The notes under the pieces are model-generated. The model saw only the letters and a program-made list of their open reading frames with translations, did no database searches and had not been told where the DNA came from. This document shows positions 5,530 to 44,854 of a stretch of 64,000 nucleotides of DNA, piece by piece (within the stretch, counting starts at the first letter, position 1; every line of letters starts with the position of its first letter). The stretch comes from a virus. The translations under genes and the position numbers were made by a program. The stretch covers positions 32,001 to 96,000 of the IMG/VR virus record IMGVR_UViG_3300005805_000050; one strand, written 5' to 3'.

Positions 5530-7149
5530 ATGGCAACAATATCGTTTTACGGATCTCATAATGCGGCGTATGTAGTAGAGTCAGGGGGCAAAATCTTACT
5601 CGTATTAGAAGCTGAACGTTTCCTGAATTACAAGAATTCGGGCATCGCTCAGTATATGTGTCCGAAATCTACTGAAATTCTGTTTTTAGCGGAGTATATT
5701 CCTAGGTGGATAATGAGGAAACTGAATATCGACGAATTTGAGACTTGTTACTTTTCGAACACCGACGTCATAATGGATGAAAACAGGTTTAATCTACAAA
5801 AGACTATACCAGCAAAAAAATACGTTCAGTGTTTACACCACGAATCCCACGCAGGTGGATCATTTTATCAATCTTCCTTCAAAGAAGCCCTAATATTTTC
5901 ATTTGATGGAGGAGGAAACGATGGAAAGTTTTGTGTATACACGTGTAAGAGAGGCGAGTCTCCAAAACTACTAGAACAAGTACTAAATCCAAAATACAAC
6001 AATCCCCATATTCATTATGATCTAGGATTTCCGTATATGATATTCGCTCATTTCCTAAAAGACATAAAACAAGAGGATTTGGGTATGGGAAATTTAGTAT
6101 ATCCTGGAAAGTTGATGGGCTTATCGTCTTACGGAAACGTGATAGAAGAGTGGTTGCCGCACTTCATAGAATTCTACAAAGACAGTCCAGAGGGTTCTAA
6201 TTATTTGGAAAAAATAACAGCACTAGGAAATAAAATAGACGTTACCTTTGATGCTTCTAACAGGTTAGATGGACAACTAGCTTATGATATAGCCGCTACA
6301 AATCAAAGAGCATTTGAAGATTGCTTTTTAGAGATAGCAAAACCATACATGGAAAAATATCCTAACCTGCCTCTGTGTATCACCGGCGGATGTGGCTTAA
6401 ATATACTATTGAACACCAGATTAGTAAACGAATTCAATAAAGAGGTTCACGTAGGACCAGATCCAAACGATTGCGGTATAGCTTTAGGAATGATGCTAAA
6501 CAGCTTAAAGCCAAATGAAGCATACGATAGCACGTATTCAGGCACAAATCTATTAGATATAGACAGTTTAGGTACATACATACAAAATAGTGCGTTTTAC
6601 ACCAAAACTAGACGTGTTAATATTGAAAAACTTGCTAAAGACATAGAATCAGGTAAGATTATAGGTGTTGCTCGAGATCGCGCAGAACACGGACCTAGGG
6701 CTTTAGGAAATAGAAGCATAATATGTAATCCAATAATATCTAACATGAAAGAGGTGTTAAACGATAAGGTTAAGCACCGAGAGTGGTATAGACCTTTCGC
6801 GCCTGTGGTTAGATTAGAGGATGTAAATAAGTATTTCGAATGGAATAAAGAATCCAAGTGGATGAGTTTTTGTCCACAAGTTAAGGAAGAGTGGAAACTA
6901 AAACTACCATCGATAACGCATGTTGACGGCACAGCAAGGGTGCAAACAGTCACTAAAGAGCAGAACCCGTGGTTGTATGAACTATTGACCGAATTTGAAA
7001 AGCTCACAGGCGTGGGAGTATTATTGAATACATCGTTTAACGTAGACGGAAAACCCATATTGTCTACAATAAAAGACGCTTTCACTATACTAGAAAAAAC
7101 TCAATTAGACGGCTTAGTTATAGAAGAATATTACATAAAGAAAAATTGA
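5530..7149 (+). CDS. Carbamoyltransferase, NodU/CmcH family
   Basis: GSHNAA, EAERF, HHESHAG, FSFDGGG, GKLMGLSSYG, GGCGLN, NDCGIALG, EHGPRALGNRSI, KHREWYRPFAP, HVDGTARVQTV and LNTSFN. Confidence 0.95.
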   Translation: MATISFYGSHNAAYVVESGGKILLVLEAERFLNYKNSGIAQYMCPKSTEILFLAEYIPRWIMRKLNIDEFETCYFSNTDVIMDENRFNLQKTIPAKKYVQCLHHESHAGGSFYQSSFKEALIFSFDGGGNDGKFCVYTCKRGESPKLLEQVLNPKYNNPHIHYDLGFPYMIFAHFLKDIKQEDLGMGNLVYPGKLMGLSSYGNVIEEWLPHFIEFYKDSPEGSNYLEKITALGNKIDVTFDASNRLDGQLAYDIAATNQRAFEDCFLEIAKPYMEKYPNLPLCITGGCGLNILLNTRLVNEFNKEVHVGPDPNDCGIALGMMLNSLKPNEAYDSTYSGTNLLDIDSLGTYIQNSAFYTKTRRVNIEKLAKDIESGKIIGVARDRAEHGPRALGNRSIICNPIISNMKEVLNDKVKHREWYRPFAPVVRLEDVNKYFEWNKESKWMSFCPQVKEEWKLKLPSITHVDGTARVQTVTKEQNPWLYELLTEFEKLTGVGVLLNTSFNVDGKPILSTIKDAFTILEKTQLDGLVIEEYYIKKN

Positions 7150-19402: not shown

Positions 19403-22400
19403 ATGTCTTGGACCGCCCTAAATAGTGTTATAGGCGTACCTATACGAGATTACGTAAAGAGACAGCTAAAGACCCGCGTAGAGACAACAATCAAGTCGAT
19501 TAGGGGCGAAGATACGGTAAAATATTTCGCAAATAAATCTAGTTGGGTAAGATTAGTTTCATCGGTAGATCTTATGAAAACTTACAACGTGCCAGGATTG
19601 AGAGGCTACGAAGGCTCGTATTTAGCTAAAGATTTCGTACTTCACGGTGGAACTAGTAAATACAATTTCGCTTACAGTATAGACAATAGCAACACAAACG
19701 ATGGCCCAAGACTGGAAGAGTCTTTCACTGGCTACAAACTGAGGTCTGGATTCTCTGAAACCTACGGAATGTTGGGCCCTGAAGAAGTAAAAAATTACGG
19801 ATACGTTCCAATGCCTGGTATAACAAGCGTACAGATAGCCCAACAAGGTAGACTGGGATCGCTAAAGCAGGCCACAGTGCAATTTAGAGTAAACAGCAAG
19901 CAACAACTTGATATCATAGACGCGTTATACTTTAGGCCCGGATTTTCTGCACTGTTGGAGTGGGGAAACACAATGTACTTCGACAACGAGGGAAACCTAA
20001 AATCTTCGGAAGATTACACAATCGATCCATTCGCATCTAACTACGACGTAGACACATTGAGATCCCAGATCGTAGAGAACAACATAATGTCCAATGGAAA
20101 TTACGACGCCCTAATAGGAGTCATAACGCAATATAATTTCAGTTTTCAAGCGAACTCTGGATACAATTGTACGCTAACGATCGTGGGATTGGGAATATTG
20201 GGAGAGAGCATTCGAATGAACAATGCGGCGGGAATGTACCCAGACATATTGGAATCGAACGCCAATATTTTAGCTGAACTTAAAAAGAGGCTAGAAAACA
20301 AAAAGAGGGCTGAATTGGTGGCAGCAGAATTAGAAAAGGTTGGAGATTTTGGTACTACAGTACAAGTTAAAAACTTGATCAATAACACCACAAAACTTAC
20401 AGGTGTTAATGAAGTGGTACGAAAAAACAACTCTTTTGTAGCTGAGTTATCTGATTACATTGTTAAATACAAAAATAATGAGTATTTAATTATTCAAAGA
20501 GTAGGTAGCGCTAATGCTAATAATGATCAAATTATATTGCCTATACCGGCTCTATCAACAGAAGAAGCCGTAGGACAGGAATTACAATCCGCTGTAATAT
20601 CTATTGACAATCTAACAGGAGTTAATCTGAGTGCCACCGGTAACTCCGTTGATAAAGTGGTAGAAGAAATTACAAGAAATGGTCCAGACAGTGTAAATCC
20701 CGGCCTTGCAACATCAGCTCAGTATAAACTTCAAAGAACCGCCGTGTCCGTCCCAGGACCGTTTACGAATAATACGCTTGATTACTTCATTACAAAAGGA
20801 TTGGGAGGAAACGGTTTTTATTACTATGGAAGTAGAGGATTGTACGCTTCGAATGTTACTGATTCGGAAATTAACAAAGATTATAACGGCGTCCCCGGGC
20901 CCGTAAACGCGTCAGCAGCTGTAGAATGCGATTTTTATAAATTTAGAGCGCAATTAAATTATCAAATAGAGGGCGATCCCACTTACTATATAAGAATAAC
21001 AAGCTCTCCCATTGAAAACGTTGATTCCAGCACAGGATATAGTCAACCTAATCAAATCATAAGATTTCCCAACCTCCAATCGAAAGAATTTTATGGACCA
21101 AAGCCAAATCCCACAATTATTCAAAATGTTGGATCAGATAACATCGAAAACACGTCTTATCCTGTAATATTAAAACAAAAACAAAATAAGTCTCCGTTGT
21201 ATGTCAGTCCTAAAGACGGCGTGGACGAATTCGAGATAGACGGGACAGCCTTAACAAATAAAATATTCAAAGAGGTGTTAACGGGGGGAGCCCAAGGAAC
21301 ACTACAAGTAATTCGTTCCGTGGGAAAAACAGCCAAAGACTCTAGACTCGTATTTAGGATTAAAGGCGTAAAAATACCTTTACAGGATTTATATAGCACG
21401 CATCAAAAAAGCAGAGGCCTAAGTACTGAATTCTCAGTATCTGAGAACGGAGGGGTGACCAATTATAAGTATTTTGTTGGTAAACCGTACATGTATGTAG
21501 ACATTGAATTCAACGATAGTGCTCTCATAACGAGAACGACGCCTCCAACAAATGAATTAGCTACAGATCTAGGAGTAAGTCAATTAACACTAGTGTCGAA
21601 TCTAGATGACGAAAAAAAGTTACAAGATGCCGCCACAAAAGAAGCCAAAGCCTCCGCCGAGAAGAAAGTACCGCCGGTAAACGTTAGCGAAATAACAAAG
21701 TCAGAGGCTTCCAGGTACAGCTCTCACATAGAGCTGATGTTGAGATCCATCCAGCTTTACTCCTACGCGTCCATAGTACAAACTTACAAAGACGCGGCGC
21801 AGGGTGTCATTAACAATATGATCTCCACGAAATTCTTATCGAAACAACATCAAAAGTTTTTGTATAGGCTGTTCTCTAACGGAGCTTTAGAGAGATTGAG
21901 AGGGAGCGTAGCTGACATAAACAAGGACGCTGAAGCGTACAAAAAAATGTTCGCTGCTCCGAAATTTGATAGCTACGATGATTTTAAGAAAGATCCAAGC
22001 AACAAATACTTGTTAGAATCCTATTTTGGTTTTTGTAAGGCACTCATGGCGAAACCTACAAAAAACCAATACGAAGAGTATGTGGCTGGAGAGTTGAAAG
22101 ACATAGAGATAGATTACGCGTCTCTTCTACAAAGCATAGTAATACCGTACAACCAAAGTCAAGGAATGTCTAGTGACTCTGCGGCTTTACCGTATCCGTG
22201 TTACATGCCTTTCGGATTTTTCATGTGCTTGATTAACCACGTCTGTTTGCTCTACGAAAACAAACAAAAAGAGAAAAACAAACCGCTTGTATACGTGGAC
22301 TTCAATCCACAGACAAACGTTTGTATGAAGCTTCCAAGCACCGTTTCTACGAATCCTTACATGTTCATGGTGCCTTTTGAGGGCACAAATGCAGATTATA

Positions 22401-23950
22401 GGAAGATATTCGACAGCAGCATATTGAACCAAGCCGGAACTTTTTTCAAACCTAAAGTAGATGAAAACGATAAAGAAGAAGCCGCGGTACCGTTGCATGA
22501 CTTTGAAAAGAAGAATAAGATATCTCAAAACCTCATAGCAGAAAAACTGGGTTTTATGGATAACGTGGGCCAAGGGGGAAATTATCGGGGAAAAATAATG
22601 AACGTTTTGGTCAACATTGATTATTTATTGCGTGTACTGAAGAGTAAGATATCCCAAAACGAAACTAATACGTTGGTGTTAAAGGGCACTTTAGAACAGA
22701 TAGTTTCTGACATGAACAAAACTCTAGGTAACGTTAATTTTTATAGAGTAGCATACAGCGATGAATCGAACTGCTTCTACATATCGGATGACCAAAGAGT
22801 GCCCACAAAAACGGTAAAAGGTACGGACGATACAGAAACTTTCTATACTTTTCCCATATACGGTAAGCACAGTCTATGTGAAAGTTTCGACATAAAGACT
22901 GAGATAAATAATCGTTTGGGCAATCTCATAGCCATTTCAGCGAACTCTACTATAGAAACTCAAGCCACTGCAGGTAAAGATGCGACAGCGTTTGGACAAG
23001 CGAGCGTAGGAATGTTCAAAGACAGGTACAAAAACGAAATACACTCCGTAAACGACATAAAAACAGAAAACAAAAATAAAGGAGACACCAAAGAAGAGAA
23101 GAAGAATATTCAAAACGCCACAATCAACGCTGCGATACAATTCAATGCGGCGATGGAAGCTTTTTACTCTGGTGATTTTGGAAAAAACAATAGCGCAATA
23201 GCAACGGAAGAAAAAGCAGAACAAGCCACAAACTACTTGATAGACGGTTTAGCGAAGGTCAAAGCAAATGACGAAGTAAGCAAATCCTCAGCTATGATAC
23301 CGATAAACATATCTTTCACCATGGATGGAATATCTGGCTTATCAATGGGTTCTGCGTTTCTTGTAGATGAACAGGTATTACCGTATTCTTACAATAGACC
23401 CATGGGAGACAGAAAGCCGGGTTTCATAGTGACAGGCACTGATCATGCTTTAGACGGCAACAGGTGGAAAACAACAGTTAAGGGTAGCATGATGTATTTA
23501 AGCGAAATTTATCCTGATACAAAAGCCGAGGTACAGGGCGAGAAGGCGGCGCAAAGCGAGGGACCTGGAAAAAAAGAGCCACCCTATCCAAACCGATTCG
23601 ACCTAGGAGTAAATCCCGAGGTGACAAAATTAGAAAAAGATCTTAAAGCCATTTATAAAGATAGAGTTAACACTGTTGGAATTTGGGGAGATTCTAGTCA
23701 CCAACAAAGACGGAGCGATCACAATGAAGGAAACGCTCTCGATACGAGTATAATATCTCCTACAGGGGTTGTTGATACTGCTTTAGGAAACGAAATCGCT
23801 CAAAAAATAATAAACGAAGCCGACAAACGCAGCGTAACGTACATCATATTTAACAAACGTGAATGGACACGCAAAAGGGGTTGGCACCCGTATACAGGAG
23901 ATAATCCTCATGTAACACACGTTCACACAAGCTTCAAGAGAAACACATAA
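19403..23950 (+). CDS. Large baseplate hub protein with a C-terminal zinc (M15/LAS-type) peptidase-like domain
   Basis: N-terminal PMPGITSV..LLEWG hub-like region. C-terminal SDHNEGNALD (H-x6-D) and HVHTS (HxH). Confidence 0.65.
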   Translation: MSWTALNSVIGVPIRDYVKRQLKTRVETTIKSIRGEDTVKYFANKSSWVRLVSSVDLMKTYNVPGLRGYEGSYLAKDFVLHGGTSKYNFAYSIDNSNTNDGPRLEESFTGYKLRSGFSETYGMLGPEEVKNYGYVPMPGITSVQIAQQGRLGSLKQATVQFRVNSKQQLDIIDALYFRPGFSALLEWGNTMYFDNEGNLKSSEDYTIDPFASNYDVDTLRSQIVENNIMSNGNYDALIGVITQYNFSFQANSGYNCTLTIVGLGILGESIRMNNAAGMYPDILESNANILAELKKRLENKKRAELVAAELEKVGDFGTTVQVKNLINNTTKLTGVNEVVRKNNSFVAELSDYIVKYKNNEYLIIQRVGSANANNDQIILPIPALSTEEAVGQELQSAVISIDNLTGVNLSATGNSVDKVVEEITRNGPDSVNPGLATSAQYKLQRTAVSVPGPFTNNTLDYFITKGLGGNGFYYYGSRGLYASNVTDSEINKDYNGVPGPVNASAAVECDFYKFRAQLNYQIEGDPTYYIRITSSPIENVDSSTGYSQPNQIIRFPNLQSKEFYGPKPNPTIIQNVGSDNIENTSYPVILKQKQNKSPLYVSPKDGVDEFEIDGTALTNKIFKEVLTGGAQGTLQVIRSVGKTAKDSRLVFRIKGVKIPLQDLYSTHQKSRGLSTEFSVSENGGVTNYKYFVGKPYMYVDIEFNDSALITRTTPPTNELATDLGVSQLTLVSNLDDEKKLQDAATKEAKASAEKKVPPVNVSEITKSEASRYSSHIELMLRSIQLYSYASIVQTYKDAAQGVINNMISTKFLSKQHQKFLYRLFSNGALERLRGSVADINKDAEAYKKMFAAPKFDSYDDFKKDPSNKYLLESYFGFCKALMAKPTKNQYEEYVAGELKDIEIDYASLLQSIVIPYNQSQGMSSDSAALPYPCYMPFGFFMCLINHVCLLYENKQKEKNKPLVYVDFNPQTNVCMKLPSTVSTNPYMFMVPFEGTNADYRKIFDSSILNQAGTFFKPKVDENDKEEAAVPLHDFEKKNKISQNLIAEKLGFMDNVGQGGNYRGKIMNVLVNIDYLLRVLKSKISQNETNTLVLKGTLEQIVSDMNKTLGNVNFYRVAYSDESNCFYISDDQRVPTKTVKGTDDTETFYTFPIYGKHSLCESFDIKTEINNRLGNLIAISANSTIETQATAGKDATAFGQASVGMFKDRYKNEIHSVNDIKTENKNKGDTKEEKKNIQNATINAAIQFNAAMEAFYSGDFGKNNSAIATEEKAEQATNYLIDGLAKVKANDEVSKSSAMIPINISFTMDGISGLSMGSAFLVDEQVLPYSYNRPMGDRKPGFIVTGTDHALDGNRWKTTVKGSMMYLSEIYPDTKAEVQGEKAAQSEGPGKKEPPYPNRFDLGVNPEVTKLEKDLKAIYKDRVNTVGIWGDSSHQQRRSDHNEGNALDTSIISPTGVVDTALGNEIAQKIINEADKRSVTYIIFNKREWTRKRGWHPYTGDNPHVTHVHTSFKRNT

Positions 23951-31281: not shown

Positions 31282-32259
31282 ATGAGTAAGTTATTCACAA
31301 AAAGGGTTAACATTCTTCCTTACGATTACCCATCGTTACTTAAATACAAAGACGCCATAAGGCACTCATATTGGATAGACACCGAGTACAATTTCACCAC
31401 GGACATCAATGACTTCCACGTAAACATCACAGAAAACGAGAGGGATGTCATTAAAAAGACCATGCTTGCCATCGCCCAGATCGAGGTCAACGTCAAGACC
31501 TTTTGGGCTGACATGTACAAGCGCATGCCCATAACGGAGATCGGAGACGTTGGCATGACCTTCGCAGAGTCCGAAGTTCGCCACAAGGACGCTTACGCCA
31601 GATTGATACGCATTCTGGGTTTGGAAGACGAGTTCAAAAACGTAGTAGAAATACCGGCAATAAAAGACCGTATCAAATATCTCAGCAAGTACCTAGATGG
31701 TACTCGCAGTACAGATAATAAAATGTATACCAAATCGGTACTGCTCTTCTCTTTATTCATCGAGCACGTGTCGCTGTTCTCACAGTTCCTCATCATGATG
31801 TCGTTCAACAAGGACCGCAACGTTTTCAAGGGCATATCGAACGTTGTCGAAGCCACGTCAAAGGAGGAAGACATCCACGGAAACTTCGGAGCGGAGATCA
31901 TCAACATCATCAAGCAGGAAAACCCCGAGTGGTTCGATTCAGAATTTGAAGCGCTGATCGATTCTGCGTGCAACAAAGCGTACAAAGCAGAGTGCAAGAT
32001 ACTGGACTGGATATTTGAGGGAGGAGAATTAGACTTCCTACCCAAGAAGACCATACAGCATTTTATCATGAACCGCTTTAATAACTCACTTCAGAAAATA
32101 GGCATGGAGCCCATATTCGAGGTAGATTCTGACGAGATCAAGAAAACCAAGTGGTTCGAGATAGAAACTACATCCACCAAAGAGGGAGATTTCTTCTATA
32201 AGAAACAAATTGATTATAGTAAGAAACAGAAGGCAATAACAGAAGACGACTTATTTTAA
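31282..32259 (+). CDS. nrdB: Ribonucleotide reductase beta subunit, class Id (NrdBi)-like
   Basis: AIAQIEVNVKTFW, ESEVRHKDAY, LFIEHVSLFSQF and EEDIH: all-Glu/His ligand set with a Lys four residues after the first Glu. Confidence 0.92.
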   Translation: MSKLFTKRVNILPYDYPSLLKYKDAIRHSYWIDTEYNFTTDINDFHVNITENERDVIKKTMLAIAQIEVNVKTFWADMYKRMPITEIGDVGMTFAESEVRHKDAYARLIRILGLEDEFKNVVEIPAIKDRIKYLSKYLDGTRSTDNKMYTKSVLLFSLFIEHVSLFSQFLIMMSFNKDRNVFKGISNVVEATSKEEDIHGNFGAEIINIIKQENPEWFDSEFEALIDSACNKAYKAECKILDWIFEGGELDFLPKKTIQHFIMNRFNNSLQKIGMEPIFEVDSDEIKKTKWFEIETTSTKEGDFFYKKQIDYSKKQKAITEDDLF

Positions 32260-34990: not shown

Positions 34991-37297
34991 ATGATAAATA
35001 AGAGTTATGTAATGGTGGATACCATGGAGAAGTTTCGCGCCATGGCCGACCACGTAAAGAAGCACGACATAGTCGCCTTCGACACAGAAACAACCTCCCT
35101 AAACCCAAGAAAAGGCAAGATCATAGGATTCTCTGTAAGCGCAGAGATCGGATACGGATATTACGTACCGACCATGATATTCAAAGACGGGGAACTGAAC
35201 GATGCATACATAGACGGACAGAGTGCACACGAGTTGGCAAAGCGATTCATCACAGCATTGACGACTAAGAAGCTTGTAATGCACAATGCGTCATTCGACT
35301 GTAGATTCGTAAAGGCGTTTTACGATATAGATCTCACGCCAAGCTTGCACGCCGATACCATACTATTGGTACACACGCTCATGGAAGAGGGCGCAGGATA
35401 CATGTCGAAATCGCCCTTCGCTCTCAAAGAAATCGCCAAGAGCATTCAAACGGAATTGGGTCTTGACGTAGAGAAGGAAGCTAACGAAGAGCAGATCGAA
35501 CTCAAGAATTCCATAAAGAACAACGGAGGTTCGATAACTAAGGAGAACTACGAGATCTGGAAAGCGGACATCGATATCCTCTCAAAGTACGCTGCCGCCG
35601 ATACTGACTTGACTCTACGTGTGTACAACTACTTCGAACCACAGCTAGACGTTCAAGGTCTTAGAAAGTTCTATTACGAGGACGAAGTCATGCCGCTGTA
35701 CAAAGAAGTGACCATTCCCATGGAAAGCAGAGGCGTTAGACTCGACATGCCACTGATCACAGACGCCAAGCGTAAGATAAGCGAAGATCTAAAGAAGTAC
35801 CACGAACTGGTCATAAAGGAATTGCTTACGAATCCAGACGTTCGTACGTGGGTTATTTACAAAGCCACCGAAGCTTATCCTCCCAACCACAAAGGCGCAT
35901 ACGCTCAGGAGTTGGCAGAGATGCACAACTTGGACATACCAAAATCAAAGAAGAACGGCAAGTACAGCATAACAACAGCTAACGTATCTCAACTTCCCGA
36001 TAGTCCCATAAAGGAATTTCTAGTGACAGGTAACGCTGATTCTTTACCCGAAGACATTCGCTTGAAAGTCAGCATGAAACTTTGGAAGGAGGACAACGAT
36101 GGCTCTTACTTCAACATACAGTCTAAGGATCACATGGGCGAAATAGCCTTTGCGGTGCTGGGAATACAGCCTTTGTCAGAAACCAAGACAGGTAAACCCC
36201 AATTCGACGAGGACATGATACAACTCATAGCCGAGGATTACGAGTGGGCTAAACACCTCAGAGTGTACAACAAGCTGATGAAGATTAGTTCCACGTACAT
36301 CGATAGGTTCTTAGAGAGCAACGAAGACGGCAAGTACTATTTCTCCTACAAGCAACACGGTACTGTGTCGGGTCGTTACGGATCGGACGCTCAACAGTTG
36401 CCTAGACCTAAAGAGGAAGGCGACGACGATCAAGTCATTGTGGATTACAACAACTTGGTAAGAGCGTTCTTCATACCTTATGATGGAAACACGTTCATCG
36501 ATAACGACTACGAATCTCTTGAACCCAAGACGTTCTCTCACGTATCAGGCGACGAAGGTCTTATGGACATCTTTAGAAACGGTTGGGACTTTTATTCCAC
36601 CATCGCAATCAAAACCGAGAAACTGAACCAGTATTCTCCTGACAAAAAGGCTCCGAATTACTTGAGAAAGTTGGCTCCGCAATTGCGTAACAAGGCGAAA
36701 GCGTATTCCCTCGGAATTCCTTATGGCATGGGGCCTTACGCTCTTGGTAAGAACATCGGAGTGAAGACTAAGGAAGCAGAAGAGTTGGTAAATGGATACC
36801 TCGATGGATTTCCAAACCTGAAGAAGTGGATGCAGGATTCTAAAGCTTTCGCCAAGGAAAACGGCTACATCAAAACCCAAGTAGGTCGCATTCGACACTT
36901 GCCCAAAGTGCAACTGTTGTACAGCAAGTACGGAGACAAACTACTTGACTTCAAGTTCAAGATGCAGTTGGAAAAGCAGAAAGGTAAAGACCACGTGACA
37001 AACATGGTGAGAGACTACAAAAATGGTCTCAACAACAGTCTAAACGTGCAGATCCAGGGACTCGCAGCTTCAATAGTAAACCGCGCAGCTATCGCAATCA
37101 ACCGAAGATACAAAGAAGCCGGTATAAAAGGTCAGGTCGTAGCACAGATTCACGACCAGCTGATCGTAGAGGTAGAAGAAGCAAGATCTAAAGAGGCAGC
37201 AGAAATCATGCAGGATTGTATGGAAAACACAACCAAGCTGCGCATACCTTTGGTAGCAATTCCCTCTATTGCGCACAACTGGCGCGACGGTCACTGA
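34991..37297 (+). CDS. polA: DNA polymerase, family A (3'-5' exonuclease + polymerase)
   Basis: AFDTETT, MHNASFD, YAAAD, motif A DNDYESLEPK, motif B RNKAKAYSLGIPYG and motif C QIHDQL. Confidence 0.95.
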   Translation: MINKSYVMVDTMEKFRAMADHVKKHDIVAFDTETTSLNPRKGKIIGFSVSAEIGYGYYVPTMIFKDGELNDAYIDGQSAHELAKRFITALTTKKLVMHNASFDCRFVKAFYDIDLTPSLHADTILLVHTLMEEGAGYMSKSPFALKEIAKSIQTELGLDVEKEANEEQIELKNSIKNNGGSITKENYEIWKADIDILSKYAAADTDLTLRVYNYFEPQLDVQGLRKFYYEDEVMPLYKEVTIPMESRGVRLDMPLITDAKRKISEDLKKYHELVIKELLTNPDVRTWVIYKATEAYPPNHKGAYAQELAEMHNLDIPKSKKNGKYSITTANVSQLPDSPIKEFLVTGNADSLPEDIRLKVSMKLWKEDNDGSYFNIQSKDHMGEIAFAVLGIQPLSETKTGKPQFDEDMIQLIAEDYEWAKHLRVYNKLMKISSTYIDRFLESNEDGKYYFSYKQHGTVSGRYGSDAQQLPRPKEEGDDDQVIVDYNNLVRAFFIPYDGNTFIDNDYESLEPKTFSHVSGDEGLMDIFRNGWDFYSTIAIKTEKLNQYSPDKKAPNYLRKLAPQLRNKAKAYSLGIPYGMGPYALGKNIGVKTKEAEELVNGYLDGFPNLKKWMQDSKAFAKENGYIKTQVGRIRHLPKVQLLYSKYGDKLLDFKFKMQLEKQKGKDHVTNMVRDYKNGLNNSLNVQIQGLAASIVNRAAIAINRRYKEAGIKGQVVAQIHDQLIVEVEEARSKEAAEIMQDCMENTTKLRIPLVAIPSIAHNWRDGH

Positions 37298-37305
37298 TAT
37301 TTATT
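37297..37305 (+). promoter_or_regulatory. ATATTTATT motif
   Basis: Directly after the polA stop and 3 nt before ATG 37309. Confidence 0.45.
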
Positions 37306-37308
37306 GAC

Positions 37309-37413
37309 ATGCAACTGACAAAGAGAGAAAGAAAAGCCAAAGCTAGAAAGCGCATGCAGAAGGAGAACCGACGCATAAACCAGCGAAAGGGTCTGCACCT
37401 GAAGCACACATAA
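37309..37413 (+). CDS. 34-aa highly basic peptide
   Basis: MQLTKRERKAKARKRMQKENRRINQRKGLHLKHT*; 14 of 34 residues are K/R. Confidence 0.5.
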   Translation: MQLTKRERKAKARKRMQKENRRINQRKGLHLKHT

Positions 37414-37430
37414 TTTTTACAGAGCATTAC

Positions 37431-37439
37431 ATATTTATA
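37431..37439 (+). promoter_or_regulatory. ATATTTATA putative late promoter
   Basis: Exact motif 16 nt upstream of ATG 37456. Confidence 0.55.
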
Positions 37440-37455
37440 AAAAAACCTAAAGAAC

Positions 37456-37632
37456 ATGGAAATACTATTTTGGATCTTAGTTGGCGGAGTCATTTGTTTC
37501 ATCGCCGTAAAAGCAGTAGAACTCAATAAGAAATCAGACGCTCCCCAGAGCGGTAACACTTCCGGTGGAGGTGGCTACACAGGCGTTGGAGGGGACGTAG
37601 CAGGAGAATTACCTAAAGAAAACAAAAAATAA
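37456..37632 (+). CDS. 58-aa single-pass membrane protein with a Gly-rich tail (below ORF-track cutoff)
   Basis: MEILFWILVGGVICFIAVKAVELNKKSDAPQSGNTSGGGGYTGVGGDVAGELPKENKK*. Confidence 0.65.
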   Translation: MEILFWILVGGVICFIAVKAVELNKKSDAPQSGNTSGGGGYTGVGGDVAGELPKENKK

Positions 37633-37636
37633 GAGC

Positions 37637-38164
37637 ATGAAAAAGCTATTAAACGAAGTCAAAAGGATGCAAAAGATCGCGGGCATCATCAGCGAAAGCC
37701 AGTACGAAGAGAGCGCAGACCTAGCAGATGAAAGCGAAATCAAAGGCGTAAAAGAGGCGAGAAATCAAGTACCCACTGTTCCCGGTAAACTGGAAATAGA
37801 CGCCCAAGACCTAGGAGACGATCCGCGATCTTACCAAGACTCGGCTAGAGCGATAAAGACATATCTCACGAAAGCTGGTATCAAAGCCAAGGTCACAGGC
37901 GACTCCAATTTTGGAATGATTTACATACAATTGGCCGATCCGAAACAAGCTGCAAAAGCCACAAAAGTAATTCAAGACGAACTCGGATACGAAGCCGTAC
38001 CCTCACTTGACGACTCACCGGCCAGAATCGACTACGATCCAGACTATAAGGGACCCAGATGGGGCGAACCTACACGCGACGACTCAGGACCAGCCAGAAT
38101 CGACTACGATCCCGACTATGCGGGACCCAGATGGGGCGAACAGCCGTTTTGGAAAAATAAATGA
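37637..38164 (+). CDS. Hypothetical protein with C-terminal RIDYDPxYxGPRW repeats; possible readthrough to 38230
   Basis: 175 aa ORF with two repeat copies inside and a third in-frame copy after the TGA. Confidence 0.75.
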   Translation: MKKLLNEVKRMQKIAGIISESQYEESADLADESEIKGVKEARNQVPTVPGKLEIDAQDLGDDPRSYQDSARAIKTYLTKAGIKAKVTGDSNFGMIYIQLADPKQAAKATKVIQDELGYEAVPSLDDSPARIDYDPDYKGPRWGEPTRDDSGPARIDYDPDYAGPRWGEQPFWKNK

Positions 38165-38227
38165 CCTACACACGAAGTCTCACCAACTAGGATCGACTAC
38201 GATCCCAACTATAAGGGACCTAGGTGG
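38021..38227 (+). repeat. Three imperfect direct repeats encoding RIDYDP[DN]Y[KA]GPRW
   Basis: Copies at 38021-38068, 38093-38140 (72-nt period) and 38189-38227. Confidence 0.95.
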
Positions 38228-38246
38228 TAATAGCCTAAACAAAAAC

Positions 38247-38273
38247 AAAAGAGGGACTTCGGTCCCTTTTTTT
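38247..38273 (+). terminator. Rho-independent terminator with a cUUCGg loop
   Basis: AGGGAC-ttcg-GTCCCT followed by a T tract. Confidence 0.9.
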
Positions 38274-38317
38274 ATGTCACTACGAATGAAAATAGCTATA
38301 CATTCTTGAAATTGTGT

Positions 38318-38326
38318 ATATTTATA
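38318..38326 (+). promoter_or_regulatory. ATATTTATA motif upstream of the chaperone operon
   Basis: Exact motif 92 nt before the Hsp20 ATG. Confidence 0.5.
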
Positions 38327-38418
38327 ATAAATAAACGATAAAGGTACGACAGGCCTTTAAGTTATGATTAGTTAAATTATTATTAACCAAAAACAACGTC
38401 ACAGGAGGACGTAGAACT

Positions 38419-38856
38419 ATGACACAATTAACTAAATTCGCAGGTTTTGATCTTGATCCATTCGATCTGTTGTGGAAGAATTTCATCGACCACGACTCAA
38501 GATTCAATACACTATTAGAAAAAGTAAACTATCCCACGGATATTTACGAAACCGCTGACGGCATCACATTCGAATTAGCCGTCGTTGGCCTCGACTCAAA
38601 AGACATCGTAATCGAAACACAGGGCGAGGTGCTGAGAATCAAGTACAACAAGGAAAAGCACGAAGACGAAACCAAGTACATTTACAAGGGCATCGCTAAA
38701 CGTTCTTTCGACCTTGCTTGGAAAGTATCTTCTAAATTCGACCTCCCCAAACTGGAAGCGCAGTTGGAAAAGGGTCTGTTAACCATTAAGGTTCCGTTTG
38801 CCGAGACTGCAAAAGCGAAAACGATTCAAATCAAAGAAATCAAGTCTCTAAATTAA
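38419..38856 (+). CDS. Small heat-shock protein Hsp20
   Basis: YPTDIYET, ELAVVGL, YIYKGIAKRSF and A.LEKGLLTIKVP...KTIQIK. Confidence 0.93.
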   Translation: MTQLTKFAGFDLDPFDLLWKNFIDHDSRFNTLLEKVNYPTDIYETADGITFELAVVGLDSKDIVIETQGEVLRIKYNKEKHEDETKYIYKGIAKRSFDLAWKVSSKFDLPKLEAQLEKGLLTIKVPFAETAKAKTIQIKEIKSLN

Positions 38857-38890
38857 GGTAAGGGGCCTGTCTTCCTTTATCGTTTAAGTT

Positions 38891-39088
38891 ATGCCATCTT
38901 TCAACATTACAAGAAACATCATAGAAGTCAACGATCAACTCTTCGAAGTCAAAAAGACTTTCAAGGAGGAGAGTGTTAAAGATCCCGTGGGACTCAAGGA
39001 GTTCTTCGGCTACGATGCCTTGTTTAAGAAAGATGGAGTGCTGTACTTTTGTAACCTAATTGTAGAACCAGAAATAGTAACCGATTAA
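38891..39088 (+). CDS. Small hypothetical protein
   Basis: 65 aa ORF between Hsp20 and GroES. Confidence 0.65.
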   Translation: MPSFNITRNIIEVNDQLFEVKKTFKEESVKDPVGLKEFFGYDALFKKDGVLYFCNLIVEPEIVTD

Positions 39089-39096
39089 ACAAACAT

Positions 39097-39390
39097 ATGA
39101 GTAAATTAACACCACTGAACGGAAACGTAGTGCTCAAGAAAGTAGAAGAGTCTGAGCAGACCTACGGACAAATTGTTATTCCAGACATGGGCAAGGAAAA
39201 GCCCGAACTTGGAGAAGTAGTAGCCACTAGCGAGACGTACAACTGGCACAAGGGATCTTTCACCAAATCAAATTTGGAAGTGGGACAACTTGTGTTGATT
39301 CCAAAAATGGGAGCGATGTCATTCTCTATAGACACAGAGGACTACATCGTCATTAAGGAAACTGAAGTATTAGCAATCGTAAAGAAATAA
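39097..39390 (+). CDS. groS: Co-chaperonin GroES
   Basis: LTPLNGNVVLK, IVIPD..KEKP..GEVVA and EDYIVIKETEVLAIV. Confidence 0.92.
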   Translation: MSKLTPLNGNVVLKKVEESEQTYGQIVIPDMGKEKPELGEVVATSETYNWHKGSFTKSNLEVGQLVLIPKMGAMSFSIDTEDYIVIKETEVLAIVKK

Positions 39391-39391
39391 C

Positions 39392-41014
39392 ATGAGCACA
39401 ACTAAAAACGTATTCGGCACAGAACTCAAGGAGAAGCTGTTGGCCGGCATAGAAAAACTAAACGAATCGGTTTCATCAACGCTTGGACCAGGCGGCCGCA
39501 CTGTTCTTATTCGCGAACCTAACGGAGAAGTGAAGATTACGAAAGACGGCGTCACGTGCGCTAAAGCGTTTCACAAACTGGAGGACGACATCGAGGACAT
39601 CGGAGCCCAATTGGTCAAACAGGTGAGTATCAAATCCGCTAACGAAGCGGGTGACGGTACAACCACTTCGACTCTCATCGCAACCGAACTCGTAAAAGAG
39701 GGTTTGAAGGAGATCAGAGGCGGAGCAAACGCTGTGGCTGTGAAGCGAGAATTGGATCGTCTAGCGTCAGCGGTTATCGAAGACATTAAGAAGATCGCCA
39801 TTGATGTCTCTTCAGAAGAACAGATCAAGCAAGTAGCAACCATCTCAGGCAACAACGACGAAGAGGTGGGTAATCTCATCGCTTCAGCTATCGATAAAGT
39901 TGGCAGAGAGGGCGTAGTTACTATCGAAGAGTCCAAAACTGGAGAAACCACGCTTGAAGCAGTAGAGGGTATGCAGTTTGAAAGGGGATACAAGAGCCCT
40001 TATTTCGTTACGAACAACACCACTATGCAAGCCGTGTTGGAAGACTGTTACGTCATGCTTTTCGACGGTCGAATTTCTACCGCTCAAGAGCTTTTACAGG
40101 TTCTGACAAAGGCCAATTCTGAAAGCAAACCGCTTCTCATCGTAGCTGAAGATTTCGGAGACGAGGCACTAGCCACTCTCATCGTAAATAAAATGAGAGG
40201 CATCGTACAAGTGTGCGCAGTGAAAGCTCCAGAGTTTGGCGAACGCAAGACGCTTGTACTCGAAGACATCGCTATCATCACTGGCGGTCAAGTCATATCG
40301 AAGGACAAGGGTCACAAGCTCGACAAGATTCCAGCAGCACAGTTGTCTCAATACCTTGGTAAAGCCCGCATGGTAACAGTATCTAAAGAGGATACTACTA
40401 TCGTAGACGGAAAAGGGTCGGCTGAAGCAATCGAAGCCCGTGCTAACGAGATCAAAGATCAAATTGAAAAAGCACAGTCGTTCTTCGAAAAGGAGAAATT
40501 ACAAGAGCGTCTTGGTAAAATGGTCGGAGGCGTAGCAGTGATTAGCGTAGGAGGAAATTCCGAGATCGAGATCAAAGAGAAGAAAGATCGATTGGAAGAC
40601 GCACTCTATGCAACTAAAGCGGCTCTCGTAGATGGAGTAGTGCCAGGCGGAGGAGCAACACTATTCCGCATTGCGCTGAAGCACAGAGGATGCGAGAGCA
40701 GAGAAGCCGATATTGCAGACGCCATTCTTAAAGACGCTATACAATCTCCTTTCAAGAAAATTCTACTCAACGCAGGTATCGAGAATTGGTGGCAAAACAT
40801 CCCCACTTCAGACAAAGACGTGTACGATGCAAAGTCGCACAAGCTTGTAGATGCATTTGAAGCAGGCATTCTTGATCCAGCTAAGGTCGTGATCACAGCT
40901 GTAAAAAACGCAGTATCGGTCGCAGGCACAATCCTCACTACTGAGTCCGTAGTCTTCGAGAAAAAAGACAAAGACGAAAAGGATAATCAGTCGGGAGGAA
41001 TGCCGATGATGTAA
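39392..41014 (+). CDS. groL: Chaperonin GroEL
   Basis: TLGPGGR, ITKDGVT, AGDGTTT, EGMQFERGY.SPYF, KAPEFG, GVVPGGG and GGMPMM tail. Confidence 0.98.
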   Translation: MSTTKNVFGTELKEKLLAGIEKLNESVSSTLGPGGRTVLIREPNGEVKITKDGVTCAKAFHKLEDDIEDIGAQLVKQVSIKSANEAGDGTTTSTLIATELVKEGLKEIRGGANAVAVKRELDRLASAVIEDIKKIAIDVSSEEQIKQVATISGNNDEEVGNLIASAIDKVGREGVVTIEESKTGETTLEAVEGMQFERGYKSPYFVTNNTTMQAVLEDCYVMLFDGRISTAQELLQVLTKANSESKPLLIVAEDFGDEALATLIVNKMRGIVQVCAVKAPEFGERKTLVLEDIAIITGGQVISKDKGHKLDKIPAAQLSQYLGKARMVTVSKEDTTIVDGKGSAEAIEARANEIKDQIEKAQSFFEKEKLQERLGKMVGGVAVISVGGNSEIEIKEKKDRLEDALYATKAALVDGVVPGGGATLFRIALKHRGCESREADIADAILKDAIQSPFKKILLNAGIENWWQNIPTSDKDVYDAKSHKLVDAFEAGILDPAKVVITAVKNAVSVAGTILTTESVVFEKKDKDEKDNQSGGMPMM

Positions 41015-41160: not shown

Positions 41161-42042
41161 ATGTTCCTAAACAAAGCAACAGACCAGTCCAACTTGGACA
41201 CCGAGGGAGGCAGGGATTTGAACTACTACCTCGAGATGACCAAGGACTACAAACCCGATTTTGAATTCAAGGTAAAACAGTTGGAAGGGTTCAACGTCAT
41301 AGACGACGGAGAATTCCAATACGGTACCAAATCCAAGATGGGAGATTTCATGATCTCTCAAGTTAAAGAAGATACACTAGTATACGTGGCGCCGAGAACG
41401 GGATACGCGCCTTACTCTCTGACTTACCTCGCAAAGAAGTACAACAAGAAGCTTGTGTTGTTCATGCCCGCTTGCAAAGAAATCTCTGAACACCAACTGA
41501 GGGTCATAGAGGACGGAGCAACACCGATATTCATCAAGACGCCTGCAATGCCAACACTAAACTTATGGGCCAAGGAGTTCGCTAAGAAGACAGGCGCAAA
41601 GTACTTGCCCTTCGGTCTCAAGCACGAGCAGGTGGTTGCAGGCGGAGTGAAGATATTCTACGAGGCATTCAAAAACCAAAACATCGATACGATGTGGACT
41701 GTATTCTCAACTGGTGTGCTGTCCAGAACTCTTCAGATCGCGCTATCTAACACAGCCTTTAATGCTGTTGCTGTTGCAAGAAACGTTCAACCAGGCGAGC
41801 TCGGTAGAGCACACTTTTACAGCTACGATAAAGCATTCACAAAGGAAACCAAAGCCCACGTTCCATTCGATTGCATCAAAACCTACGACGCAAAGGGTTG
41901 GGAGTACATGAAAAAGTATGGCAAGGAAGGCGACTGGTTTTGGAACGTGGCTAGAAACATGCCGAAGGCCAGCATAAAGCCAAGCGATGTGGACTCTGAA
42001 CGCAAGTGGGGAGACAAGTCCGACATGGACAAGTACCTATAA
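41161..42042 (+). CDS. Putative PLP-dependent enzyme (fold type II / PALP-like)
   Basis: GTKSK (candidate Schiff-base Lys), LVYVAPRTGYAP, LVLFMP, VFSTGVLSR and YDAKGW resemble cysteine synthase/desulfhydrase-like folds. Confidence 0.55.
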   Translation: MFLNKATDQSNLDTEGGRDLNYYLEMTKDYKPDFEFKVKQLEGFNVIDDGEFQYGTKSKMGDFMISQVKEDTLVYVAPRTGYAPYSLTYLAKKYNKKLVLFMPACKEISEHQLRVIEDGATPIFIKTPAMPTLNLWAKEFAKKTGAKYLPFGLKHEQVVAGGVKIFYEAFKNQNIDTMWTVFSTGVLSRTLQIALSNTAFNAVAVARNVQPGELGRAHFYSYDKAFTKETKAHVPFDCIKTYDAKGWEYMKKYGKEGDWFWNVARNMPKASIKPSDVDSERKWGDKSDMDKYL

Positions 42043-42084: not shown

Positions 42085-42354
42085 ATGAATATCATAGAAG
42101 AAGCAAACCAGATCGTAAACAAAAGATCACAAGAAAAAGAGCGCCAATACGGTCCCTTCCAAGAGGGCATGGAGCGAGCGGCAATGATTTTCCGAGGAGC
42201 AACAGGCAAGGACATTACAGCTGAAGACATGTACATAGCGTTAGTTGCGCTCAAGCTGTCGCGTCACAGCTACAACTACAAACGAGACAATCTGCTCGAT
42301 GCTGTGGCGTACTTAGGAGCGCTCGATAACCACATATCTAACAAGAAGAAATGA
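42085..42354 (+). CDS. DUF6378-like small all-helical protein
   Basis: IIEEANQIV...RQYG, LVALKLSR and DNLLDAVAY. Confidence 0.7.
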   Translation: MNIIEEANQIVNKRSQEKERQYGPFQEGMERAAMIFRGATGKDITAEDMYIALVALKLSRHSYNYKRDNLLDAVAYLGALDNHISNKKK

Positions 42355-42898: not shown

Positions 42899-43032
42899 AA
42901 GGCTTTTTACTTGGCACACTAGGCGTTATATTGGCTTTTGTAATTCCATTGGGAATATTGAAATTAGCAACTAAATTATTAGATACCACAAACAAAAAAC
43001 AACATGAAGATAAAGAAAATCAGGGACGTTAA
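42895..43032 (+). CDS. Possible 45-aa membrane peptide
   Basis: MKGFLLGTLGVILAFVIPLGILKLATKLL...; ATGA overlap with the upstream ORF, 3' end overlaps dut. Confidence 0.35.
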   Translation: MKGFLLGTLGVILAFVIPLGILKLATKLLDTTNKKQHEDKENQGR

Positions 43033-43441
43033 GACTCCCACCAGAGGCACACCCGATAGCGCAGGTACAGATCTGTATATTCCTAAGGACTACACTTCTA
43101 AGCCAATACAATTAGAACCAGGAGAATCCCTGTTCATTCCCAGCGGCATAAAAGCACACGTACCAAAGGGTCACGCTTGGGTTGCAATGAATAAAAGCGG
43201 GGTGGCGGTTAAACAAGGTCTATCAGTAGGCGCACAGGTTGTAGATGCCGATTACGACGGAGAAATTCATATCCATGTATTCAACGTCTCAGATAGAATA
43301 CAAGAAATACAACCCGAACAGAAGATCATCCAAATGGTTTTACTGCCAGTAAACTTCGACAACGTAGAGGTGGTAGATCAGTTACCTGATAGAAACACAG
43401 AACGTGGAACTGGAGGATTTGGAAGCACAGGACTTCAGTAA
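43004..43441 (+). CDS. dut: Trimeric dUTPase
   Basis: AGTDL, NKSG, VVDADYDGEI, IIQMVL and RGTGGFGSTG. Confidence 0.95.
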   Translation: MKIKKIRDVKTPTRGTPDSAGTDLYIPKDYTSKPIQLEPGESLFIPSGIKAHVPKGHAWVAMNKSGVAVKQGLSVGAQVVDADYDGEIHIHVFNVSDRIQEIQPEQKIIQMVLLPVNFDNVEVVDQLPDRNTERGTGGFGSTGLQ

Positions 43442-43442
43442 T

Positions 43443-43925
43443 ATGGGAAGGGAAGAATACATACAAGATTTGAGTGACCGCGCGCATGAGAAAATGCATA
43501 AGCTCGATACTGTGTACATGAATATAGCTAAAGAGGTAGCTACTCTATCTCACTGTAGAAGAAGCAAAGTAGGAGCTATACTTGTCAAAGACGGTAATAT
43601 CATTTCAATGGGTTACAATGGCACTCCAAAGGGTTTTGACAATTGTTGTGAAGAGGGCCAAGTGGATTGGAACGATGAAATAACTCTAGTAACCAAGAAG
43701 GAGGTACTGCATGCCGAAATGAATGCGGTATTGAAAGCTGCAAGAACTGGAAACTCTGTAGAAGGATCAACGCTGTATATAACTTTATCCCCCTGTGTAG
43801 ATTGCTCGAAATATTTATTGCAATCTGGAATCAAAAGAGTTGTATATTTAGAAGATTACCGCGATACGAATGGAGTCGAGTTACTAAAAAATTACATGAA
43901 AATAGAAAAATATGTTTCTGAATAA
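43443..43925 (+). CDS. dCMP deaminase (start placed at ATG 43443)
   Basis: CRRSKVGA, GYNGTPKGFDNCCE, HAEMNA and PCVDC. Confidence 0.93.
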   Translation: MGREEYIQDLSDRAHEKMHKLDTVYMNIAKEVATLSHCRRSKVGAILVKDGNIISMGYNGTPKGFDNCCEEGQVDWNDEITLVTKKEVLHAEMNAVLKAARTGNSVEGSTLYITLSPCVDCSKYLLQSGIKRVVYLEDYRDTNGVELLKNYMKIEKYVSE

Positions 43926-44547
43926 CGTTACGCAGGCATTCGAACTGCTTTATCACGATATAAACACCCGTGGACAAAAATTCGCTGACACTAAAGCCAT
44001 GTTCAATGCATCATTCACAGTATTAGACGTCAAAGATCGCGAAGTAACAACTCCCGCAAGATCATTCAAAGCAGATTATGCCGAGTACGAATTCAATTGG
44101 TATTTGACTGGTAACAGAGACGCAAAGGAAATTTCTGAGCGTGCTAAGATGTGGAAGAAGATGATGGTTGGAGATACTACAGAAGTGAATTCTAATTACG
44201 GATACTTTTGGAAATACAACGATCAATTAGACAGAGTCATCAAAGATCTCAAAGAGAATCCTAATACACGTAGAGCTATAGTTGTACACTACGACATCAA
44301 TGAGTTAGATAGATACAAGTACGATACTCCGTGCAACGATGCACTAAACTTCTATGTAAAAGACGGTAAACTAGAACTTACCGTATTTGCCAGAAGCATT
44401 GATTTGTGGTTCGGATTTTGCAACGATTTCTACACCTTTTCAAGATTGCAAGAAATCGTAGCCAAAGAAACCGGTTACAAACTTGGAAGTATGCATTGGT
44501 TCATAACAAACTTACACATATATGAAAGACACTTCGACAAACTATGA
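43912..44547 (+). CDS. Thymidylate synthase superfamily enzyme, probably dCMP-(hydroxy)methylase type
   Basis: NSNYG, TRRA, catalytic PC, RSIDLWFGFCND (Asp at the E. coli Asn177 position) and NLHIYE. Confidence 0.8.
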   Translation: MFLNNVTQAFELLYHDINTRGQKFADTKAMFNASFTVLDVKDREVTTPARSFKADYAEYEFNWYLTGNRDAKEISERAKMWKKMMVGDTTEVNSNYGYFWKYNDQLDRVIKDLKENPNTRRAIVVHYDINELDRYKYDTPCNDALNFYVKDGKLELTVFARSIDLWFGFCNDFYTFSRLQEIVAKETGYKLGSMHWFITNLHIYERHFDKL

Positions 44548-44854
44548 AGAACAGGGAATTCCTGATGGAAAATATCCCATAGTGAAATGCGTGATGGGTC
44601 ACGAGGAAATTGGTCTAAAATTAGGGCATCACTACACTGTCACACGAACAACTAAAGACGGTCACTTAGAACTCCTCGAAACAAGCCCACCATTACCTTA
44701 TACTTGTTTTCACAAGGAACGTTTCGAATACACTGGAGAGGCTCTCACATTATTTGAAATATTTCCTGAATACCTAAATCCAGAATACTATCCGAATGAG
44801 GATTATTTTGTAGATTCTGATAAACAACAAGACAATGGAAACACCCAAAACTAA
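44522..44854 (+). CDS. Hypothetical protein
   Basis: 110 aa ORF overlapping both neighbours. Confidence 0.55.
   Translation: MKDTSTNYEEQGIPDGKYPIVKCVMGHEEIGLKLGHHYTVTRTTKDGHLELLETSPPLPYTCFHKERFEYTGEALTLFEIFPEYLNPEYYPNEDYFVDSDKQQDNGNTQN

Follow-up and report, generated by a model that had tools for sequence, protein, structure and literature searches.

A short thymidylate synthase-family protein encoded by a Flavobacterium-phage-like virus is a predicted deoxycytidylate hydroxymethylase

Enzymes of the thymidylate synthase (TS) superfamily can be distinguished by a few active-site residues. At position 177 (E. coli ThyA numbering, used here unless indicated otherwise), Asn goes with deoxyuridylate (dUMP) as substrate and Asp with deoxycytidylate (dCMP), while position 143 is Leu in enzymes with methyl products and Asp or Glu in those with hydroxymethyl products (PMC13326640, PMC8670742). 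Position 147 is typically His in enzymes from unmodified contigs (PMC13326640, PMC8670742), and an Asp-to-Asn replacement at position 169 is the mark of flavin-dependent 5-hydroxy-dCMP synthases (PMC13326640). In the dCMP hydroxymethylase (dCH) of phage T4, gp42 (PDB 1B5E, 6A9A), Asp145 (T4 numbering) activates the substrate water while Ser94 and Tyr96 position waters, and mutants D145N and S94A lost hydroxymethylation (PMC6400193). The gene considered here is located on a stretch of 64,000 nucleotides (nt), hereafter the window, corresponding to positions 32,001 to 96,000 of the IMG/VR virus record IMGVR_UViG_3300005805_000050. Although auto-annotated as a TS, it probably encodes a folate-dependent, T4 gp42-type synthase of 5-hydroxymethyl-dCMP (5hm-dCMP), a reading to which we attach a probability of roughly 0.75 on the strength of its residues and relatives. 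With this, a gene of freshwater phages of the Flavobacterium type, which form a widespread group, gains a probable role in DNA modification.

43912..44547, + strand: TS-family enzyme, predicted dCMP hydroxymethylase, 211 amino acids (aa) (PF00303 2.8e-31, residue tables, tree)

The window protein and 140 representatives from the library were aligned with known-product enzymes taken from public records. The reference enzymes reproduced the published residue code exactly, and the key positions were as follows, the last figure being the number of residues found after Tyr209:

E. coli ThyA and RB69 td, product thymidylate (dTMP): Leu143, His147, Asp169, Asn177; 55-67
Xp12 enzyme, product 5-methyl-dCMP: Asn143, Pro147, Asp169, Asp177; 61
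T4 gp42, product 5hm-dCMP: Asp143, Thr147, Asp169, Asp177; 28
RB69 gp48, product 5-hydroxy-dCMP: Glu143, Thr147, Asn169, Asp177; 12
SPO1 gp29 and ViI enzyme, product 5-hydroxymethyl-dUMP: Asp143, Asn147, Asp169, Asn177; long and unrelated
Window protein, predicted product 5hm-dCMP: Asp143, Asn147, Asp169, Asp177; 7

The window protein matched PF00303 with 109 bits (cut-off 24.3) over profile positions 25-217 of 266 and, with aligned Cys141 of the P-C motif and Arg161, Ser162 and Asp164 of the R-S-x-D motif (own numbering), belongs to the TS superfamily. Its segment RSIDLWFGFCND (residues 161-172, nt 44392-44427) was aligned by HMMER without gaps onto RSNDVVFGFRND of T4 gp42 and equally onto RSADVFLGVPFN of a solved TS. 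An earlier note, made by a model from the sequence alone, had proposed this ungapped alignment with Asp in place of Asn177, which HMMER and MAFFT both confirmed, and the gp42 motif it had given for comparison turned out to be correct. In the MAFFT alignment with E. coli ThyA, Asp172 (codon 44425-44427) corresponded to Asn177, Cys141 (codon 44332-44334) to Cys146 and Asn142 to His147, in agreement with the description, in the same note, of a 211-aa protein devoid of the usual histidine of the PCH motif. Asp138 (codon 44323-44325) occupied the position of Leu143 and Asp164 that of Asp169; equivalents of Gly173 and Tyr209 were kept too, the latter being followed by only seven residues versus 55 in E. 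coli ThyA.

All mechanistic residues of T4 dCH were retained (T4 numbering: Glu60, Trp82, Ser94, Tyr96, Arg123/124, Asp145, Cys148, Arg168, Ser169, Asp171, Asp179, His216 and Tyr218). They were invariant in 17 relatives of the short clade described below, except for Arg124, which was kept in 14 of the 17. The water-handling pair Ser94 and Asp145 was absent from ThyA, Xp12, RB69 gp48 and the dUMP hydroxymethylases, and was shared by the window protein only with gp42 and its Asp177 relatives. Both proteins also lack a ThyA-type C-terminal tail and fall in one broad clade. In contrast, their overall identity is low (phmmer E about 1e-21), they belong to separate subclades, and the window protein is 35 residues shorter. 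By homology to T4 dCH, Cys141 would attack C6 of dCMP, Asp172 would recognise and protonate N3 of the cytosine, and Glu60 would activate methylene-tetrahydrofolate; a water positioned by Asp138, Ser94 and Tyr96 would then capture the exocyclic methylene intermediate. No hydride-transfer reduction would be expected, because the C-terminal tail sealing the active site of ThyA is absent.

The product had been given in the earlier note as either 5hm- or 5-methyl-dCMP. Its dCMP substrate is retained here as a prediction, and the product can be narrowed to 5hm-dCMP because Asp is found at position 143, Ser94 and Asp169 are kept, the tail is missing and the protein falls in the hydroxymethylase clade. 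A dCMP methyltransferase comparable to that of Xanthomonas phage Xp12, leading to DNA with 5-methylcytosine, appears quite improbable. Asp177 is indeed common to the Xp12 enzyme, and N177D mutants of ThyA produce 5-methyl-dCMP according to a passage of PMC8670742 that cites other work; however, the resemblance to Xp12 stops at Asp177. The Xp12 enzyme displays Asn143, Pro at the position of Ser94 and a tail of 61 residues, against an acidic residue (Asp143), Ser94 and seven residues in the window protein, and it lies outside the 98%-supported clade that contains the latter. Moreover, the D145N and S94A mutants of T4 dCH show that these two residues serve hydroxymethylation (PMC6400193).

The gene is the last of three tightly packed co-directional open reading frames (ORFs) at 43004-44547, on a viral contig of 122 kb (~75% complete) whose genes all lie on one strand:

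43004..43441, + strand: trimeric dUTPase (PF00692 4.9e-24; TIGR00576 above cut-off; five motifs all recognisable by eye)
43443..43925, + strand: dCMP deaminase (PF00383 2.8e-26; phrog_174 1.5e-58; HAE / PCxxC zinc site intact)

The last 14 nt of the deaminase gene are shared with the start of the TS-like gene, and an alternative upstream GTG start at 43404 was judged less likely. In almost every related locus, the deaminase gene immediately precedes the TS-like gene. Two dUMP-producing enzymes hence adjoin the TS-like gene, which is moreover the sole TS-family gene, with no ThyX, on the window contig and in the closest complete relative (G001). Such a context would suit an ordinary, unusually short TS, and the earlier note had raised the two neighbours as a caveat in this sense. 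They proved not to be discriminating, as T4 has dUTPase and dCMP deaminase functions as well. In MetaGPA, TS and dCMP deaminase were found together on cytosine-modified contigs (PMC8670742). Against an ordinary TS stands the loss of Asn177, Leu143, His147 and the tail of ~55 aa, replaced here by Asp, Asp, Asn and a 7-aa tail, while scores against the NCBIfam TS equivalog profiles were far below every cut-off. A search for a second thyA or thyX, suggested in the earlier note, gave a divided answer: none was present on the window contig or in G001, while relatives G002, G003 and G004 harbored the short Asp177 form as well as a canonical ThyA-type gene, and no ThyX was found in the window contig or in G001-G004. 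Two of these three relatives were rated complete, and the ThyA-type match spanned the whole profile in G003 and G004 but only part of it, at a contig edge, in G002. That these phages have both genes speaks strongly against the short form being their dTMP synthase, and an ordinary TS is considered very improbable for the window protein as well. The dUMP made by the dUTPase and deaminase would be turned into dTMP by the host ThyA in the window lineage and by a phage ThyA in sister lineages.

Two trivial origins of the short form were rejected. An assembly artefact is at odds with the presence of the signature in most of ~80 related loci, the close relatives being 212-230 aa long with equally short tails. 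An overlapping 110-aa ORF (44522-44854) is not a frameshifted TS C-terminus; it lies in another frame with unrelated sequence, and is replaced by other genes in relatives with equally short TS tails.

The phylogeny proposed in the earlier note was computed as a quick maximum-likelihood tree rooted on ThyA, with support given by the Shimodaira-Hasegawa-like approximate likelihood ratio test (SH-aLRT). Xp12 branched first after the ThyA outgroup, followed by a clade (98% SH-aLRT) composed of all hydroxymethylases and hydroxylases, including gp42, SPO1 gp29, ViI, RB69 gp48 and the window protein. Within it, the latter was placed in a 95%-supported short-form subclade together with a Bacteroides phage protein. 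Of the 142 best representatives in the library (at least 170 aa), nearly all displayed Asp143 and Asp177, while the sub-signature Asn147/Ala165/Ile168 was encountered in only four representative clusters. Proteins 57-81% identical to the window protein were encoded by ~80 related viral loci, with Ile168/Asp169/Asp177 in 76 and Asp143/Cys146/Asn147 in 77 of them. The closest annotated relatives were the short TS homologs of Bacteroides phages BF486P2 and BF503P (45% identity), annotated as deoxycytidylate 5-hydroxymethyltransferase (uncharacterised). They share the short clade, Asp143, Asp177 and the short tail, but their residues 147, 165 and 168 are T4-like (Thr, Met, Asn) and their 53-kb genomes, of siphovirus size, harbor a second, longer Asp177 paralog. 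In BF486P2 (19770-20531 and 22603-23283), the two Asp177/Asp143 paralogs, annotated as 253 and 226 aa, are ~2 kb apart with a dUTPase gene between them; the longer one displays Leu instead of Gly173 and a very long branch.

Some features of this group recall the flavin-dependent 5-hydroxy-dCMP synthases of the RB69 gp48 / DLP3 gp80 type, whose product would offer an anchor for direct O-glycosylation by the phage glycosyltransferases (GTs). RB69 gp48 also has Asp177, an acidic residue 143 and a very short tail, the genome is rich in GT genes, and a flavodoxin-like reductase of flavin mononucleotide (FMN) is found inside the module of some relatives. Nevertheless, such an activity is hardly to be expected of the window protein. 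The diagnostic D169N replacement is absent here, Asp164 being retained, and Asp169 was kept in 77 of 79 scored related loci (76 IDD, one NDD; the other two are likely motif mis-hits), as were Gly173 and Tyr209 in the window protein (PMC13326640). Furthermore, the GT cluster is shared with Flavobacterium phage vB_FspM_immuto, the DNA of which has canonical deoxycytidine (dC; see below). The FMN reductase (L077:9022-9600, also in L026 and L033; 192 aa; NADPH-dependent, PF02525 7.5e-23) is encoded between dUTPase and dCMP deaminase; it deserves mention as the 5-hydroxy-dCMP synthase branch uses flavin, and the TS homologs beside it still keep Asp169.

Several points weigh against a gp42-type dCMP hydroxymethylase. 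Its first-shell residues Asn147, Ala165 and Ile168 differ from the Thr, Met and Asn of gp42, so that the product could differ in detail; gp42 belongs to a different subclade, deep branches of the tree being weakly resolved; and no published enzyme assay or nucleoside analysis was found for any member of the short clade. In addition, partners of the T4 pathway are missing. PF21448 (T4-type deoxynucleoside monophosphate (dNMP) kinase), PF02223 (thymidylate kinase) and PF03819 (MazG) were found neither in the window contig (~75% complete) nor in three relatives rated 100% complete, in which a gp56-like dCTPase was not found either, and searches with these families, PF01702 and PF02511 were empty in the window contig and four relatives. 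The earlier remark that no modified-dNMP kinase was visible in the window can therefore be extended to three complete related genomes. Phmmer searches of all contig ORFs with T4 gp1, gp56, beta-glucosyltransferase and ViI Dnk/dUTPase gave nothing below E 0.08, and the window contig, unlike T4, has no homolog of the gp1 kinase, the gp56 dCTPase or the alpha/beta-glucosyltransferases. Gp56 belongs to the all-alpha family PF08761, distinct from dUTPase, and no evidence of a dCTPase type of activity was found for the window dUTPase. The genes found thus do not explain how 5hm-dCMP would become the triphosphate or how dCTP would be excluded. Either a host kinase accepting 5hm-dCMP or an unrecognised phage protein would fill the kinase gap, and replacement of C may be partial because no dCTPase was found. 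Some ORFs with N-terminal P-loop-like motifs were examined as kinases and rejected as tail-fibre-like, ATPase/helicase-like or NAD-dependent epimerase proteins.

With a dCMP hydroxymethylase of the gp42 type, 5hm-dCMP would presumably be phosphorylated and then used by the phage DNA polymerase, yielding restriction-resistant DNA. The phage thus probably puts 5-hydroxymethylcytosine (5hmC) into its own DNA, which is a known anti-restriction strategy of phages.

Two further genes were encountered upstream of the dUTPase gene, the first encoding an enzyme dependent on pyridoxal 5'-phosphate (PLP):

41161..42042, + strand: divergent fold-type-II PLP-dependent enzyme, 293 aa (phrog_7093 1.9e-28; no Pfam match)
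42085..42354, + strand: DUF6378 protein, 89 aa (PF19905 2e-12)

Gene order was kept across the group, namely DNA polymerase, Hsp20, GroES, GroEL, PLP-like enzyme, DUF6378, dUTPase, dCMP deaminase and TS(D177), followed by PD-(D/E)XK, a small ORF, GT482, GT431, a 148-aa ORF, GT2 and aminotransferase. The five genes from the PLP-like enzyme to the hydroxymethylase can be described as an accessory nucleotide module, inserted among the replication genes of a freshwater myovirus that resembles Flavobacterium phages.

The PLP-like protein was modelled with a predicted local distance difference test score (pLDDT) of 85 as fold type II, with an invariant Lys57 in the sequence YGTKSKMG. Its top Foldseek matches were threonine deaminase, serine racemase, ACC deaminase and SbnA (E about 1e-9, template modelling score about 0.6); fold-type-II PLP enzymes are a class performing beta-elimination and beta-replacement. 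DUF6378 was modelled as a five-helix bundle (pLDDT 88). For this structure, Foldseek returned nothing below E 2 and the atlas no hit of 0.9 or more, and a sequence search of the PDB gave no match. When considered as a MazG-like dCTPase, its best VIA-align Z was 5.8 and MazG itself reached Z 4.4, among unrelated helical proteins. The family comprised 1440 database homolog clusters, with 74-93% identity among the matches listed, originating from freshwater, marine and Tara samples and from contigs of up to 250 kb. Its 21 invariant columns include R14, E17, R20, D48, K57, R60, D68 and D72, an extraordinary conservation for a phage protein of 89 aa.

Among DUF6378 loci spanning 12 kb or more, all 33 had a PLP-like homolog, a TS-family gene or both no further than 8 kb away, and each of the 17 TS genes near DUF6378 was of the D169/D177 type. 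On two further contigs an Asp177 form was encoded at another site, in one case next to a canonical ThyA, and the remaining contigs were 9-64% complete. The association of DUF6378 and the PLP-like gene with Asp177-type enzymes is therefore genuine across the available viral loci, which is not proof of a pathway. The earlier note had cited both proteins as partners in a hypermodified cytosine, and this part of its proposal stands as far as co-occurrence goes. One may imagine that 5hm-dCMP is only a first step, and that 5hmC, at the nucleotide level or once in DNA, is carried on to an undescribed cytosine derivative by the PLP enzyme and DUF6378, the three genes forming a unit in several aquatic phage groups; we regard this as an unlikely though not negligible proposal. 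The unit would dispense with the kinase and pyrophosphorylase steps of thymidine hypermodification, with a possible PLP-dependent beta-replacement onto the 5-hydroxymethyl group that would, speculatively, attach an amino-acid moiety to the hydroxyl. With residues Asn147, Ala165 and Ile168, unusual in the first shell, the methylene intermediate might also be trapped by some nucleophile in place of water. The proposal is favoured by the co-occurrence described above, by the confident fold-type-II assignment, by the strong conservation of both proteins and by the joint absence of TS(D177), DUF6378 and PLP-like genes from immuto. However, co-occurrence is the sole evidence and neither protein has a known chemistry, DUF6378 having no informative fold match. 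Three loci (L097, L088 and L086) combine the TS-like gene with DUF6378 and have no PLP-like gene nearby, and the available part of several large, incomplete contigs encodes DUF6378 and the PLP-like protein but no Asp177 enzyme. Moreover, the known parts of thymidine hypermodification (5-hydroxymethyl-pyrimidine kinase and aGPT-Pplase-like transferase) were not detected. Enzymes of the dCMP hydroxymethylase kind being already known, it is only through the association with DUF6378 and the PLP-like protein that the locus leads, with the same low probability, to something new.

In L097 (10001-11797), L088 (10001-11803) and L086, the Asp177 TS homolog was fused to a C-terminal domain of ~383 aa, for which neither a Pfam family nor a homolog in the window contig was found; a canonical ThyA is encoded at another place in these phages. 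This domain is seemingly encoded by a separate gene ~1 kb downstream in L090 and L091.

The nearest cultured phage was Flavobacterium phage vB_FspM_immuto, which shared its backbone and order of genes with the window (DNA polymerase 54%, GroEL 53%, PD-(D/E)XK 41% and GT2 45% identity). Its two large GTs were 62% and 51% identical to those of the window, and were thus as conserved as the polymerase. In contrast, immuto is devoid of the PLP-like, DUF6378 (by a family search run without a positive control), dUTPase, dCMP deaminase and Asp177-TS genes, and has instead DpdA/Que genes, a ThyA and a thymidylate kinase. Liquid chromatography-mass spectrometry of its virion DNA showed that deoxyguanosine was fully replaced by fdPreQ1, the other three nucleosides being canonical (PMC10516641). 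The GT cluster being kept in a phage that has no Asp177 enzyme and canonical dC, it is independent of cytosine chemistry and is a core feature of the phage group. The proposal, in the earlier note, that the many GTs contribute to a hypermodified cytosine is accordingly not supported, and phage glycan clusters should not be read as DNA-glycosylation machinery. DpdA was not found in the window contig or in four relatives. The absence of the module from immuto, which has 7-deazaguanine instead, fits alternative DNA-modification cassettes on one backbone, so that close relatives would rely on different anti-restriction chemistries, 7-deazaguanine in immuto and predicted cytosine hydroxymethylation here. 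The DpdA/Que genes of immuto are located upstream of the polymerase gene and the cytosine module of the window lineage downstream of GroEL (window 34991-41014 compared).

A carbamoyltransferase gene had also been cited in the earlier note among the parts available for a hypermodified cytosine:

5530-7149: carbamoyltransferase, beside the tail sheath gene, among GT genes

On MetaGPA cytosine-modified contigs, an Asp177 TS homolog and a dCMP deaminase are accompanied by a 5hmC carbamoyltransferase (PMC8670742). The window resembles these contigs in its Asp177, non-His147 TS homolog adjoining a dCMP deaminase and in the presence of a carbamoyltransferase on the same contig. It differs in that the carbamoyltransferase is 37 kb away from the TS-like gene, in a glycan locus beside tail genes, and this position among glycan GT genes is the context reported for unmodified contigs (PMC8670742). 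Strong matches to NovN, TobZ and GdmN were obtained. In the protein, GPRALGNRS and HVDGTARVQTV retain the canonical TobZ/NovN-like form, whereas GPRALCNTT is the reading of the validated 5hmC carbamoyltransferase, a comparison limited to short motifs, as is the mapping of W408/G421/R423 deduced from them. Complete relatives G002 and G003 lack the gene altogether. A role of the carbamoyltransferase in DNA modification is rated as unlikely, and its place in the proposed cytosine pathway, like that of the GTs, is not supported.

The remainder of the 46-64 kb region and the sequence beyond can be described as a nucleotide-sugar factory. The sugar-biosynthesis cluster runs past the right end of the window (G000:C1:96600-101398) with a 3-dehydroquinate-synthase-like cyclase, a three-domain thiamine diphosphate-dependent enzyme, an epimerase and a GT2. 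The DNA was also present in lake and freshwater sequencing runs from several studies. Finally, a small RyR-domain protein (PF02026, 8.3e-12) was encoded between GroES and GroEL in L097 (5818-6177).

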